From the IMG/VR virus record IMGVR_UViG_3300021399_000108, positions 99,521-163,520 of that record: a stretch of 64,000 nt of DNA, one strand, 5' to 3'. Shown piece by piece: positions 48,986-54,240 of the stretch. Within the stretch, counting starts at the first letter, position 1, and every line of letters begins with the position of its first letter. This DNA comes from a virus (taxonomy: Duplodnaviria > Caudoviricetes). The notes below the pieces were generated by a model. It searched no databases, had not been told where the DNA came from, and saw only the letters and a list, made by a program, of their open reading frames with translations. Both the position numbers and the translations under genes were made by a program.

Positions 48986-49916
48986 CTAATTCCTCCTCTA
49001 ATTCATCTCCCCCTTCATATTCAATATTATCGTTACCGTCATCTTCTAGTGCTTCATTTTCAATTTCTTCTAAACGCTACGTCATATTATAACGAGCTTT
49101 TTTATCTTCAACCTGTTCGGCAAAATTACCCTCATTGCGCACTAGCCGCTGTAAATAATTTTGAATATTTTCCATCATAAAATCAATTGAATCTTGTGGT
49201 TCAGTATGCCAATTAGGATGCCAACCTTTTTTGCCATAATAAACCATAAGCTAACCCACAGACTAAAAGTCTGCCGCGGATTTCGCATTAGAAGCTTCAA
49301 ATTTAGCAATCTTAATAATATTATCGCGCGCGTCCATATCTTTTTTTACATCCATATTTTCGCGCAGACCTTTTTTAATACGTAATTCAATTTCGCAAAG
49401 ATCGCGCGCGTAATTTTGGAGAATGGGAGTTGATACGTTTTGAGTCGCAACAATTTGATTATAATAATTGTCTAACCATAATAACTATTCTTTTTTATAA
49501 GAGGGCGACCAATCTTTTTTTAATTGCTTTAATTTGGCCGCGCCTAATGCTTCAATTTCTTCATCAATTGTTTGTTCTTTTTGGGCAAGATGCCAGCGTT
49601 CGTTCTCATCTGCCCATTGCAAGGCTTGATAATGGTCATCCAATAATAAATTACAATAGGCGGTTAAGGTATGATCTTTATGCGTCTAATACAAAGACGT
49701 CCACTTATTTAAATCAAATGGTATATCTAAATAGCGGCATAATCTATCTACTTCTCCTAAACTATCTTGTGCAACCATTGTTTCTAAACAATTAATACAA
49801 ATTAAAGAATGATGTTGAGGGAAAAATTTGCTAGGAGTTCGCACAAAATCACTTAGTGGTTTTATTTGTTTGCATTTCAGGCATTTCCTTGATGTTGTCT
49901 TTTCTTCTTCTATCAT
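48978..49916 (-). CDS. Zinc-finger protein, candidate terminase small subunit (312 aa, TAG read-through)
   Basis: CLKC...CINC, LCRYLDIPF; SD AGGAGG; immediately upstream of and overlapping terL. Confidence 0.6.
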
Positions 49917-51183
49917 ATAATGTTTGTCCTCCTTTTGCAATTCGTCTTAATCTTTCACATTCTTTACAATTAGAAGCCCATCCGTCTTTTCGTCCCGCAT
50001 TGCGCCCAAAGAATAAGGGATCACGGGGTAACATTTTGCCGCAACGGAAACACTTCTTTAATTTTGAGTCGGGAGTCTATACCAGAATGCGGGCTTTTTT
50101 CGCTGCGGTCGCGATTGCTTTTGGAAGAGTACGCGCCATGATAGAACTTAAATGATTTTCATTATATACTAATCCAAACCTAATTTCTAATTCTTTTAAT
50201 ATATCACTATAAGGTACATGTTGAATTTTTCGCGTTAATAGAAAGTCTTGTACAGGATTCAGATTAGCGAGCGCGCGATAACGTTCAAAGTCAAAAATAA
50301 AAGTACGCCCGTATGTCTAAATTCTTGTTCTAAAAGTATCATATAATAAATCATAATTATTAATTAAAGCCGCAACATGATGATAGTCTTCCCAATCAAA
50401 TGTGTGCTGGCGCACCACCCATTTTACGAATGTCCCCTGCTTCGTCACTTTTGACTCATAGTCATCTATATTTTTAGAAATAGTATGTAATAGCGCATTA
50501 TCCACTCGCTTTTGCCATTGTTCTAGCGGCATCCAATAAGCGCAATCTTGTGACCAATCAACAAATTGCGCATGAGGATGCTGCATGAACATAAAATGTA
50601 GAGTAGGCTTATAGGCATCTTTCAAATAATATTGGTGCCGCCGCAGATCAATTAACCAATGCTTTAATTGGTATAGGCGATAATCACTAGCTAATTCTGG
50701 GGTATCTTCGGTAGGCGCAATTTCACCCTTATAGGCCGCAATAATTTTTTCTAAATTATCAATAGAGTCCCAAAGTTCTACCATACCGGGTATATCACTA
50801 TCGCCCGCGTCAATTAGCTCGCCCGTCTTTTTATTATAGCGGGGCCGCACAATAGTGGGTTTAGGGACGGTGTAGGTGCGCCTCTCCGTCATATGTTTTA
50901 GCGCCAATTGATCCGCGCCCGGGTTTTCTAAAATTTCATCAAGCGACGCATTTTTGTCTTCTTTTTTGCGGTAGCTTTGGTATCGCGTATTATTTGTCAT
51001 TATTTCGCCACGTTTTGCGGCGTTTAAACCTTCTTCATCTTTGCCGTAAAGTATGTATGAACCCATTTGCTATAATTCAGCAGGTGCGGGATCATACTAT
51101 AATTTGTCTAATATATCTGTAACAGCGGCGACTCGGTCTACGTCGCGCTATATTGAATAATCTAAGGAATAATTTTTTTTCAT
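49849..51183 (-). CDS. First gene of the morphogenesis operon; putative DNA-binding protein with C-terminal zinc finger (444 aa, 4 TAG)
   Basis: SYILYGKD; fragments 50317-51066 and 49849-50034 in frame; CFRC...KDGWASNCKEC. Confidence 0.7.
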
Positions 51184-51225
51184 TACTTTGTTACCACCTC
51201 GAGGTTATAGAATCCCTTCAGATAT

Positions 51226-51254
51226 ATGGTAACATATTTTTTAATTTTTGTCAA
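51226..51254 (-). promoter_or_regulatory. sigmaA-type promoter of the morphogenesis operon
   Basis: TTGACA-17 bp-TACCAT with extended -10 TG; SD GAGGTG before ATG 51183. Confidence 0.75.
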
Positions 51255-51414
51255 GTATTTGAGTGTAGGAAAATTGAGGTTTTTAAAATTAGGTTTAATT
51301 TTAAAAAAATTGGTGGGAGATGTAGACAGGGGTGCGGTTTGAGTTAGACACAACTAACTTTTTCCTCATACTATCCGCCCAACTATCATTTTATGAGGGA
51401 ATACAACAAACAAT

Positions 51415-51440
51415 AAAAAAGCAGGGCCTTGCCCTGCTTT
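51415..51440 (-). terminator. Intrinsic terminator
   Basis: AAAGCAGGGC-AAG-GCCCTGCTTTTTT on the minus strand after gene 51457. Confidence 0.85.
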
Positions 51441-51456
51441 CCTGTTTTATTATGGT

Positions 51457-52233
51457 TTACAATGTTTCATAAACCCCATTTTCAATATTCTCTAAAAAAT
51501 TGAAATACATTCCGGGAGTAAATTGTAATTGCACATTGCCACTTTTTATAGTGAGCGCTTTTATCTCTTTTCCGTTTTTCCCCAAATGGTTTATATCATA
51601 CTGAAATTGATATTTATTTGTCCAAATTGCGGTTCTTTTTTTAATTTCAGTGATTGCCTGTTGTATGTTTCCTTCCATACAGAGGGAATAAATAAGATTT
51701 TTGTCAATGTCTGAAAACATGCCATAAATAACCGTTGAATAGTTACCTTCCATATAATCAAAGCAGGTTCCTTCTGTGAATGTTTTGCCATTGTGACCTA
51801 TTTCAATGACGCCATATTTTTTTGAAATAACATCGCTTTTTCCGAATTGCGCAACGGAAAGAGCGGTTGAGCGAACGAGATTTAAGTTTCCAATGATAAT
51901 AATTCGAACAAGCAATTCGAACAAATCGCCAAACGCGCCAAAATCCTTGCTATTGACGGCCATTTCCTGTTTGTGTGTAGCATAAAATTTAATATAATCG
52001 GATAAAGAAAGCACATTTTCAGAATACAGTTTTTTCATACATTCTGAAATAAGAAAAGCAAGAAAAGAATTAATATCATTTGCGGAAAAAACAGAGGGAA
52101 ACTTTTCTGTCAATTCTACCACTTTTTCCATTGCTACCATGTTTACGTTTTCCGGCGTGAAAGCCATTTCTTCTATTGCCTTTTTTAACGTCCTTGCCTG
52201 CAAGGTATTAATAGAATAGTTATGCCGTGCCAT
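51457..52233 (-). CDS. Hypothetical 258-aa protein, possible degenerate PD-(D/E)XK fold
   Basis: SD GAGGT, ATG 52233, own promoter and terminator, no TAG; GDLFE...SD...IEIG pattern. Confidence 0.7.
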   Translation of the reverse strand: MARHNYSINTLQARTLKKAIEEMAFTPENVNMVAMEKVVELTEKFPSVFSANDINSFLAFLISECMKKLYSENVLSLSDYIKFYATHKQEMAVNSKDFGAFGDLFELLVRIIIIGNLNLVRSTALSVAQFGKSDVISKKYGVIEIGHNGKTFTEGTCFDYMEGNYSTVIYGMFSDIDKNLIYSLCMEGNIQQAITEIKKRTAIWTNKYQFQYDINHLGKNGKEIKALTIKSGNVQLQFTPGMYFNFLENIENGVYETL

Positions 52234-52288
52234 TGTTTTGCTACCTCTTTTCATAAGATACAAGACTTTTTTGTCTTGTTCGTGTCCT

Positions 52289-52317
52289 ATTTTACACGAA
52301 AAAATCAACTTTTGCAA
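52289..52317 (-). promoter_or_regulatory. sigmaA promoter for gene 51457-52233
   Basis: TTGCAA-17 bp-TAAAAT. Confidence 0.65.
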
Positions 52318-52351
52318 GCCCTTTTTAAATTGTTCATAAAAAATTCATATT

Positions 52352-52378
52352 TTAGCACTCTATCAAAAAGAGTGCTAA
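52352..52378. promoter_or_regulatory. CIRCE element (HrcA operator) 1
   Basis: TTAGCACTC-tatcaaaaa-GAGTGCTAA, exact consensus. Confidence 0.92.
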
Positions 52379-52385
52379 AATACAA

Positions 52386-52418
52386 AGTCAAAAATAGTCA
52401 AAGTCAAAAATAGTCAAT
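52386..52418 (+). promoter_or_regulatory. Two tandem CtsR boxes
   Basis: AGTCAAA-AAT-AGTCAAA (52386-52402) and AGTCAAA-AAT-AGTCAAT (52402-52418); consensus RGTCAAA-NAN-RGTCAAA. Confidence 0.8.
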
Positions 52419-52419
52419 T

Positions 52420-52446
52420 TTAGCACTCACTTGAAAAGAGTGCTAA
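52420..52446. promoter_or_regulatory. CIRCE element (HrcA operator) 2
   Basis: TTAGCACTC-acttgaaaa-GAGTGCTAA, exact consensus with a different spacer. Confidence 0.92.
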
Positions 52447-52466
52447 CATTTGCGCGAACGTTCATA

Positions 52467-52661
52467 TGTTACAACTTTGTTACAATCGTAATATTTTTGT
52501 AATATTTAAATGTATAATATGGCCATTTTTTGACCATATTTTTTTAGATGTGTAACATCTAAGAATGAAAATTGACAATATGGTCAAAAAGTGATACCAT
52601 ATACATGAAGGGAGGGAGGAAAGATGTTAAGTAAATGTTACAATCGTAACAATTCCGTAAC
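52467..52661 (+). promoter_or_regulatory. WalR/OmpR-family-like direct-repeat boxes, two composite copies
   Basis: TGTTAC-N5-TGTTAC-aat-CGTAAT-N5-TGTAAT (52467-52503) and TGTTAA-N5-TGTTAC-aat-CGTAAC-N5-CGTAAC (52625-52661); consensus TGTWAH-N5-TGTWAH. Confidence 0.5.
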
Positions 52662-52756
52662 AATTGTCGATTCTGGTAAAAATTCATACATTGTTGAATC
52701 TGGTACCAAAAAAGACATCACCACCACTTCCGCACCTCTCGCGCACATCCGGGCGC

Positions 52757-52843
52757 ACAAGCCGCAAGCAAGCTGCAAACAAGCTGCGAGCTGGAAAGCT
52801 ACAAGCTACAAGCTGAAAGGAGAAGCTACAATGACAAGCTACA
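52757..52843 (+). repeat. Cluster of short CAAGCT-like repeats
   Basis: AGCT at 52771, 52782, 52789, 52797, 52804, 52811, 52824, 52837. Confidence 0.7.
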
Positions 52844-52992
52844 TGATTGAAGGTATTTCACGCGATGGTCACAAAATGATTGATTGCACGTGCTACACAA
52901 CAAAAGAAGAAGCAGAAAAAGCCATTATGGTTGGAGATTGGCTGACAAAAAATGGCAAGATATACGCGCATATAGTGGAACGAGAGGCGTAA
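52831..52992 (+). CDS. Small early protein (53 aa)
   Basis: SD AAAGGAG before ATG 52831; stop codon inside a hairpin. Confidence 0.6.
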   Translation: MTSYMIEGISRDGHKMIDCTCYTTKEEAEKAIMVGDWLTKNGKIYAHIVEREA

Positions 52993-53035
52993 TGCCTCTT
53001 ATAATTATTAGATGTTTAACATCTAAAAAAATATG

Positions 53036-53064
53036 TTGACAATCTGATTTTTGTATGCTATAAT
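53036..53064 (+). promoter_or_regulatory. Consensus sigmaA early promoter, representative of more than 20 in 52.5-63.8 kb
   Basis: TTGACA-17 bp-TATAAT with extended -10 TG, 9 bp after a palindrome. Confidence 0.9.
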
Positions 53065-53094
53065 AAAGCCATCAAATGAAGGGAGACGGAAACC

Positions 53095-53397
53095 ATGCTA
53101 AACACTCTGAAAGCACTCAAAAACAATGACGGGCTCACTTTGAAAGATTACAAGTCTATTGTCTACAAAACAGGCTATCAGGTTGCCGATTATGGCGTCG
53201 AGTGCAAAACCGCCGAAGAAGCATTGAAAGCCATTGACGAAATGAATGGCGATTGCGGCATCTGGTACAGTGACGGCGTCTATTATGTAGATCACAGCTA
53301 CCGAGTAAATACGAAAAAGCAAGCTCTTGCGGATGGAAAAAAGTATAATCAAATCAGTGTGTTAAAATGGTCGGATATGTCTCTGGTGTATTGTTAA
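53095..53397 (+). CDS. Hypothetical early protein
   Basis: Own promoter, SD, 100 aa. Confidence 0.8.
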   Translation: MLNTLKALKNNDGLTLKDYKSIVYKTGYQVADYGVECKTAEEALKAIDEMNGDCGIWYSDGVYYVDHSYRVNTKKQALADGKKYNQISVLKWSDMSLVYC

Positions 53398-53517
53398 GCG
53401 ATACACCTTTTTCTTTTTGTTATAAAAATTAGATGTTAAACATCTAAAAAAATCTATTGACAACTAAAAATCTTTGCTGTATAATATAGACAAAGAAAAC
53501 GAAAGGAGATTGACACC

Positions 53518-53853
53518 ATGAAAACCGCCACGATGACAAGCCACTGCGCAAATGATAGATATAATCGAATTCAGAATATTATCTCGTTAATCGGTTTAGG
53601 AAACATTGTGCAGGAAAGAATAGAAGTATCCAGCAACAGAAACTTCGCGCGCAAAGTGCTTTGTGTAACAGATACGGGTGTAACCATTGTGAAATCAGAG
53701 AATAAAATGAAGATTATTACAATCTATGTAACCACTACACGAGAATTAATCAGAGTATACAATGGAAGAATGAACGTGCCAGAAAACGTTTGGGAGAAAG
53801 TACAATATAATGAAAGACGATATATCCGAAATGGTAAAACCATATGGCCGTGA
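53518..53853 (+). CDS. Hypothetical early protein, paralog of 56361-56681
   Basis: Shared IGxG, CxTDTGxTxVK, TxYVTT and GKTIW motifs. Confidence 0.85.
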   Translation: MKTATMTSHCANDRYNRIQNIISLIGLGNIVQERIEVSSNRNFARKVLCVTDTGVTIVKSENKMKIITIYVTTTRELIRVYNGRMNVPENVWEKVQYNERRYIRNGKTIWP

Positions 53854-53970
53854 TGGCCATATCTATATTTTTAGATGTTAAACATCTATTTTTTATGATT
53901 GACAACTATTAGATTCTTTGCTATAATTAAGATGTTCCAAGGAACAAAACAGAAAGAGAGGGAAAATACC

Positions 53971-54240
53971 ATGACAGTTACTTTCTACGTCTACAATCTG
54001 AATCAGGACATGATTCTCACTGCTGAGCATCTTCTGAACAAATCTATTCGATTCTTCATTAATTGGGATGGCGTCAAAGTCAAAGAGCATACAAAAGTGC
54101 GCATCACTTGGACAGTACCAACCACTCAAAAAGTAGCACTTAAAATTATGCAACAGTTTCAGGCACGGCTTTGCCGTATTCATGAATGGAATAAAGATGA
54201 AGTTGGTATATATGACTATGAATGGACGCTTGGAGACTAA
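53971..54240 (+). CDS. Hypothetical early protein
   Basis: SD GAGGG before ATG 53971; own promoter. Confidence 0.75.
   Translation: MTVTFYVYNLNQDMILTAEHLLNKSIRFFINWDGVKVKEHTKVRITWTVPTTQKVALKIMQQFQARLCRIHEWNKDEVGIYDYEWTLGD

Follow-up and report, generated by a model that had tools for sequence, protein, structure and literature searches.

In Firmicutes, chaperone promoters can be under the dual control of HrcA, through CIRCE, and of CtsR, as is found for dnaK and groESL of Staphylococcus aureus. Phages are also known to read regulators of their hosts, such as LexA and Spo0A, and to our knowledge the known host-regulator sites in virulent phages act in cis. Spo0A boxes with a demonstrated effect are found in the virulent Bacillus phages phi29 and Nf; those of phi29 overlap early promoters and flank the origins (PMC2731898). 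Loci that titrate a regulator are represented by datA for DnaA and by synthetic decoy arrays (PMC7826281, PMC8599769).

The DNA analysed here, called the window, is the final 64 kb of a 163.5-kb IMG/VR phage record, and it carries a compact block of CIRCE elements and CtsR boxes. As in the dual control of Firmicutes, a CtsR box adjoins a CIRCE within a few bases and the same two consensus sequences are used. However, the Firmicute pair overlaps the promoter of a chaperone gene, while the phage sites have no chaperone gene and no strong promoter beneath them. In the hsp20 promoters of rumen Clostridia the -35 box lies inside the CIRCE spacer, whereas the phage has several copies of each site in a sandwich arrangement. 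Chaperone genes of phages and prophages can likewise be preceded by an exact CIRCE, but the CIRCE elements of this phage family are orphans. The likeness to phi29 and Nf is that consensus sites for a global regulator of the host are placed in control regions, tying development to the state of the host; the signal there is sporulation, while here it would be protein-folding stress, with an effect that we infer. Like datA and the decoy arrays, the block is a cluster of putative high-affinity sites whose number relative to the regulator could set the level of free regulator. Those arrays are chromosomal or engineered, whereas the phage block is, to judge from its sequence, a candidate titration locus. 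In the literature searched, we found no paper on CIRCE or CtsR sites borne by phages, and no description of a phage in which such sites are detached from chaperone genes.

Sites of the HrcA and CtsR type are thus conserved, multiplied and shuffled across a family of large rumen phages, and the block suggests that the phage senses or disturbs the protein-folding stress system of its host. If the sites act in cis, a lytic phage would time its genes by the folding load that its own infection creates. As a sink, the sites would let the phage take over the heat-shock response of the host in a protein-free manner. Both operator consensus sequences are common to Firmicutes, which makes either reading accessible to a test in Bacillus subtilis.

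The CIRCE/CtsR block and its control hub

The record is low in G+C. The block sits in a gene-free divergent control hub between leftward genes and early cassettes. The leftward side, all on the minus strand, comprises the portal, terminase, 320-aa, 444-aa and 258-aa genes, which were translated with TAG read as Glu. The rightward side is an array of short early cassettes, each with a 19-bp palindrome and a strong promoter at its head. Gene orientation and GC skew both switch at the hub, and the replication genes are found to its right. Neither a tyrosine integrase nor a serine recombinase was found in the 163.5-kb record, and the phage appears virulent. A search of positions 51400-53400 against public phage genomes gave no similar DNA, and an Rfam search over 51000-54000 gave nothing above noise.

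Two exact CIRCE elements with different spacers, enclosing two tandem CtsR boxes, had been reported by a sequence-only reading of this DNA, and scans of the window and of the whole record confirm the arrangement. CIRCE 1 (52352-52378) and CIRCE 2 (52420-52446), neither of which has a strand, are exact HrcA operator palindromes. In both, a 9-bp inverted repeat with a 9-nt spacer matches the consensus arms; the arms of CIRCE 1 are extended to 14 bp, and the spacer of CIRCE 2 differs from that of CIRCE 1. With up to three mismatches allowed, 0.01 CIRCE matches are expected by chance in the window, and these two are the only matches in the 163.5-kb record. The tandem CtsR operators (52386-52418, plus strand) are formed by four GTCAAA heptads in two overlapping boxes, exact in box 1 (52386-52402) and with one mismatch in box 2 (52402-52418). 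Each box fits the consensus of a tandem heptad direct repeat with a 3-nt spacer, and the two boxes are a 16-bp tandem duplication. At one mismatch or fewer, 0.05 CtsR boxes are expected in the window, and a count of two was reached in 1 of 100 shuffles. The arms of CIRCE fold strongly as single strands (z = -5.9).

The block is not an assembly artefact, because it is found without any difference in a second, independent contig from a rumen metagenome (L223). A comparison of this contig with window positions 50522-53476 shows identity from 51107 on and 33 differences within 50563-51106, the pattern of a recombination joint inside the 444-aa gene. Because of this identity from 51107 onward, the contig is uninformative on selection at the block.

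Promoters were called as matches to the consensus. The leftward sigma-A-type promoter of the 258-aa gene (52289-52317, minus strand) has its -35 box at 52312-52317 and its -10 box at 52289-52294, separated by a 17-nt spacer. In the first rightward early cassette (52545-52600, plus strand), the 19-bp palindrome at 52545-52563 is followed by a -35 box at 52572-52577 and a -10 box at 52595-52600. The leftward -35 box is 34 bp from CIRCE 1, and CIRCE 2 is 125 bp from the rightward -35 box, in agreement with the earlier statement that the block overlaps neither promoter. Relative to the leftward start the block lies at roughly -70 to -165, and consensus matching finds no strong promoter under it, again as had been stated.

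The 258-aa gene (51457-52233, minus strand) stands alone and is without an in-frame TAG. It is preceded by a leader hairpin (52260-52279) and followed by an intrinsic terminator hairpin (51407-51438). Its product has no match in Pfam or PHROGs. The structure model is confident (pLDDT 89), and the fold searches returned weak matches of the restriction-endonuclease-like type (best Foldseek E 0.3; VIA Z 5.9 for NhoI), so that the modelled protein may weakly resemble restriction endonucleases. The conserved 444-aa gene (49849-51183, minus strand) adjoins the hub, and its product matches a PHROG annotated as sigma factor (E 1.6e-16). A four-cysteine zinc ribbon is found at the end of this protein. 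The 444-aa gene has a strong promoter of the host type, which mirrors the first early promoter as an inverted repeat (51213-51254 with 52572-52613).

Chaperone genes, bacterial counterparts and related phages

No gene for Hsp20, Cpn10/GroES, Cpn60/GroEL or Hsp70/DnaK was found in the whole record, which upholds and extends the earlier observation that no chaperone gene adjoins the block. The CIRCE elements thus lack the usual position at a class I heat-shock gene, where the operator overlaps the promoter or follows it closely. Likewise, the CtsR boxes are not at the promoter or start site of clp or another class III gene, and no such gene is adjacent. The sole ClpP-family gene, which is probably the prohead protease, lies 84 kb away and has no box near it. 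Genes for HrcA and CtsR are not encoded by the phage either. The reader of the sites should therefore be a host protein, barring an unrelated protein of the phage that imitates the specificity of both repressors.

An exact CIRCE is present at no fewer than 113 loci on viral contigs. Among the matches listed for 100 open reading frames beside viral CIRCE elements, there are 22 GroES, 20 Hsp20, 6 HtpG, 1 HrcA and 1 Clp-type protein. Where a viral CIRCE is adjacent to a chaperone gene, this is ordinary cis control of that gene. Eight viral contigs of 5-6.8 kb (L007, L015, L021, L034, L046, L056, L059 and L073) carry a replication-protein gene (PF23343) and an hsp20 gene preceded by an exact CIRCE, and they look like small replicons bearing a heat-shock gene.

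The tandem of a CtsR box followed by CIRCE is found in no other viral contig. It is present in 22 bacterial genomes (one per species searched), 16 of which are rumen or gut Clostridia, and it sits on an hsp20 promoter wherever the downstream frame is readable. Five of the tandem-bearing genomes have one ctsR gene and 3-4 CIRCE elements each. This distribution of a sequence motif suggests a host among the rumen or gut Clostridia. The rumen Clostridia in this set (L201-L222) include Saccharofermentans, Mageeibacillus, the Ruminococcaceae strains YAD3003 and AB4001, and many MAGs. Their hsp20 promoter consists of a CtsR box, 4-5 bases (about 15 in some) and a CIRCE with the -35 box in its spacer. 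Capture of such a host promoter as a working copy was considered and rejected: the hsp20 layout, with -35 in the CIRCE spacer and -10 nine bases after, is not reproduced in the phage.

Relatives of the phage were obtained by a scan for exact CIRCE, by a profile of the 444-aa gene and from a protein database (homologues of the 258-aa protein); an exact-peptide search of viral contigs with the 258-aa protein gave no relative. Five further phages have a 258-aa gene that is 59-100% identical, and each of them shows the CIRCE-CtsR-CIRCE sandwich, with 2-3 CIRCE elements and 1-3 CtsR boxes. L223 has the same block, identical to the window across its whole length. The order is CIRCE, CIRCE, three CtsR boxes, CIRCE in both L224 and L226 (258-aa protein 86% and 63% identical, respectively). 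It is CIRCE, two CtsR boxes, CIRCE in L232 (77%) and CIRCE, one CtsR box, CIRCE in L228 (59%).

An alignment of the window with L224, L232, L226 and L228 was used for pairwise identities of the elements. The CIRCE arms are 98-100% identical (CIRCE 1 100%, CIRCE 2 98%) and the CtsR heptads 94%, while the values are 55-76% for the linkers and 34-43% for the CIRCE spacers (CIRCE 1 34%, CIRCE 2 43%). The boxes are kept in relatives and the spacers have diverged, which is the outcome that the sequence-only reading had proposed to look for. By this pattern of substitution, the CIRCE/CtsR cluster is under selection. A similar picture emerges when the window is combined with nine relatives obtained by way of the 444-aa gene: over their 16 CIRCE copies, the arms are 96% and the spacers 29% identical. 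The spacer and flanks of CIRCE 2 are almost identical to those of CIRCE 1 of a distant relative (L077/L173). One phage has four CIRCE copies at a 49-bp period.

The gap between the leftward -35 box and CIRCE 1 is constant at 34-36 bp in the sandwich subclade. In other relatives, CIRCE adjoins iterons or is separated by 41-85 bp from the promoter of an unrelated leftward gene; the leftward genes next to CIRCE in L016 and L055 have no detectable homology to the 258-aa protein. One phage (L009) shows the classical order of promoter, CIRCE, ribosome-binding site and start codon. In almost no phage examined do the sites overlap a strong sigma-A promoter. CIRCE 1 and the AAT following it read as a weak promoter-like element in both directions. 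The leftward element, with an extended -10, is found in all five aligned phages plus L077 and L233; its score is 8.0 versus 9.7-13 for real promoters, and it is partly a consequence of the palindrome itself. A rightward CIRCE-1 promoter for a small RNA was rejected, as L228 and L232 have not kept its -10 box. Only one compensated pair was seen in a consensus fold of the downstream region.

Relatives whose 258-aa protein is 35-52% identical have one or two CIRCE elements and no CtsR boxes, and one of them is without any CIRCE. The profile search with the 444-aa gene gave 80 further loci; a hub CIRCE is present in 10 of 72 tree rows, the window included, which requires at least six gains or losses. 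The closest phage by the 444-aa gene (L121, 2400-5000; 75% identity) is without the 258-aa gene, the CIRCE/CtsR block and the iterons. Because the entire module is missing there, it is a unit of insertion or deletion. CtsR-type boxes also recur by themselves, with 18 exact copies in 812 kb of family loci versus 0 in simulations. They are often part of a fixed composite, in which the box is flanked by a GGCCGGCC motif and, on the opposite side, by ATTGA; this composite is carried by L122, L123, L126-L129, L142, L151, L152, L164, L176 and L187. L176 has three of these GGCCGGCC/CtsR-type composites within 130 bp.

Possible functions of the block

The earlier proposal that these are operators of the host HrcA and CtsR type agrees with their exact consensus and with the conservation of arms and heptads in relatives. 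The block very probably represents sites for these host repressors that are maintained by selection, an interpretation well supported because the phage encodes neither repressor. Among its consequences, the likeliest would be action in cis, through which the block senses the state of host proteostasis and the number of phage genome copies; we propose this tentatively and at somewhat less than an even chance. HrcA dimers would bind to the two CIRCE elements and CtsR dimers to the heptad boxes between them. When a single genome enters an unstressed cell, free GroEL would keep HrcA active, and HrcA and CtsR together would occupy some 95 bp immediately upstream of the leftward promoter. The coated pad would cover the weak CIRCE-1 element and damp the leftward side. 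It would be emptied when phage proteins occupy GroEL, when stress inactivates CtsR, or when replicated genomes exceed the repressors, and the leftward accessory gene, perhaps with neighbouring hub functions, would then be turned up. Some titration of the repressors by replicating genomes would be an unavoidable by-product.

The main rival turns this by-product into the function: the sites would regulate nothing in cis, and hundreds of replicated copies would soak up HrcA and CtsR, so that groESL, dnaK, hsp20 and clp of the host are derepressed when the virion proteins must fold. We regard such a dedicated sink as possible, at distinctly less than an even chance. The sequence features agree with the two readings to about the same degree. 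The cluster is invariably within the divergent control hub and, in the sandwich subclade, at the fixed 34-36 bp from the leftward -35 box, which argues for cis action and against a sink. The conserved leftward element of CIRCE 1 and AAT (five aligned phages, L077 and L233), the classical order in L009 and the precedent of the Spo0A boxes of phi29 and Nf (PMC2731898) point in the same direction. However, the block lies away from every strong promoter, and an overlap with a strong sigma-A promoter is missing from almost all phages examined. In addition, the CIRCE-embedded element is weak (8.0 versus 9.7-13) and partly a product of the palindrome, and other relatives have CIRCE at 41-85 bp from a promoter whose leftward gene is unrelated, or adjoining iterons. 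The copy number is variable and expanding, from 2-3 CIRCE with 1-3 CtsR boxes to four CIRCE at a 49-bp period. An expansion to three CIRCE and three CtsR boxes, or to four CIRCE, is unneeded for simple occlusion and favours a sink. The scattered occurrence of the trait resembles that of an accessory element (at least six gains or losses; module missing from the nearest 444-aa-gene relative), and the leftward neighbour gene varies between lineages, which also suits a sink better than a cis switch. The sole commonality of the two operator types is that they bind the repressors of the two arms of the proteostasis regulon, in a phage without chaperone genes of its own. With 3-4 CIRCE in each candidate host, a replicating phage would soon outnumber the host sites, and related phages have 8-9 exact Rex-type sites in the same hub. 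Against a sink, each genome carries 2-4 sites only. The hrcA gene is normally autoregulated, which would buffer titration, and in the literature searched we found no natural case of phage DNA acting as a decoy for a regulator of the host. In a broader form of the sink, to which we give a similarly limited likelihood, the whole hub, with CIRCE, CtsR boxes and the Rex arrays of relatives, would be a DNA sponge that strips stress and redox repressors from the host during replication. Chaperones, the Clp machinery and fermentation genes would then be switched on without any phage protein.

Less probable than cis sensing or a sink is an architectural role, in which the hub is a replication origin or DNA-processing site that recruits HrcA and CtsR of the host as structural or gating factors; we consider this unlikely. 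Analogues exist in the blocking of phi29 origins by Spo0A and in IHF at lambda sites. In favour of this role, conserved iterons are densely packed next to the block, together with nested inverted repeats and repeats of 11-nt period; the hub is the switch point of gene orientation and GC skew, and the replication genes are to its right. But the GC skew follows gene orientation anyway, and the absence of the whole module from the closest 444-aa-gene relative would be odd for an essential origin. It is quite unlikely that the sites are look-alikes read by phage proteins, or DNA or RNA hairpins with a coincidental host match, or else a neutral relic of a captured promoter. The hub does contain many other palindromes that are specific to single lineages and whose readers are probably phage proteins; the CtsR-type boxes of relatives often stand in the fixed composite with the GGCCGGCC motif, and the CIRCE arms fold strongly when single-stranded (z = -5.9). 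Nevertheless, phages whose proteins are 35-100% identical repeatedly show the 18/18 match to the host operator while their spacers vary freely, and no homologue of HrcA or CtsR is encoded by the phage. Compensated changes, which a hairpin would tolerate, are not seen, and neutrality would not leave the arms at 98-100% while the linkers are at 55-76%. An attachment site, with the CIRCE copies as the phage half of an integration site aimed at CIRCE of the host, is highly improbable: a CIRCE does lie some 100 bp or less from a locus end in several viral contigs, but the 163.5-kb record has no tyrosine integrase or serine recombinase, the multiple copies are interleaved with CtsR boxes, and the phage looks virulent. 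Even taken together, look-alikes, relics and an attachment site remain improbable, and cis sensing stays the reading that we prefer.

Other repeats in the hub

Next to the block, a TTCATA-N5-TTCATA direct repeat had been noted, and it is present at 52333-52349 (plus strand; 0.04 expected), in the A/T-rich stretch between the leftward -35 box and CIRCE 1. Only the copy proximal to CIRCE 1 is conserved in relatives. The two TGTWAH-N5-TGTWAH matches reported at 52467 and 52625 are also found; four of the six matches in the window fall within 52467-52662, and 1.3 are expected in the whole window. Their description as WalR-like is not supported, since the consensus is degenerate, the conserved unit is a longer iteron in nested inverted repeats, and nothing in the sequence singles out a binder. 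The TGTTAC-type iteron recurs on either side of the first early promoter. Its first cluster, with a CATATG box and nested inverted repeats (52461-52507, plus strand), is 88% identical among relatives. The second cluster (52625-52662, plus strand) lies at the start of a doubtful 122-codon frame, and its DNA is conserved in relatives. The iteron bears a closer resemblance to a half-site of clostridial Rex than to any WalR-specific sequence.

Exact Rex-type operators are arrayed in the same hub of more distant relatives, two of which also have CIRCE. One of these (L063, 3353-5243) has nine exact Rex-type copies interleaved with two CIRCE elements, and the other (L095, 7091-10260) has a Rex-type operator array plus CIRCE. 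A third relative (L180, 3650-4470) carries eight identical Rex-type copies. In other lineages, arrays of different palindromes occupy the same position of the hub; the array types of relatives include TGTATACA, CACTTTA-type and Rex-type. From these varied arrays across lineages, the hub can therefore be seen as a fast-evolving collection of operator arrays. CIRCE and CtsR boxes are the two operator types in it whose host reader can, on their consensus, be named with confidence. Across the early cassettes of one relative (L020, whole locus) about 24 Rex-like and 9 LexA-like boxes are found. Repeats rich in AGCTG with an 11-nt period lie at 52758-52820, just before a small open reading frame (52831-52992). 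They are found at the same place in all relatives examined, within the doubtful 122-codon frame, which starts at 52624.
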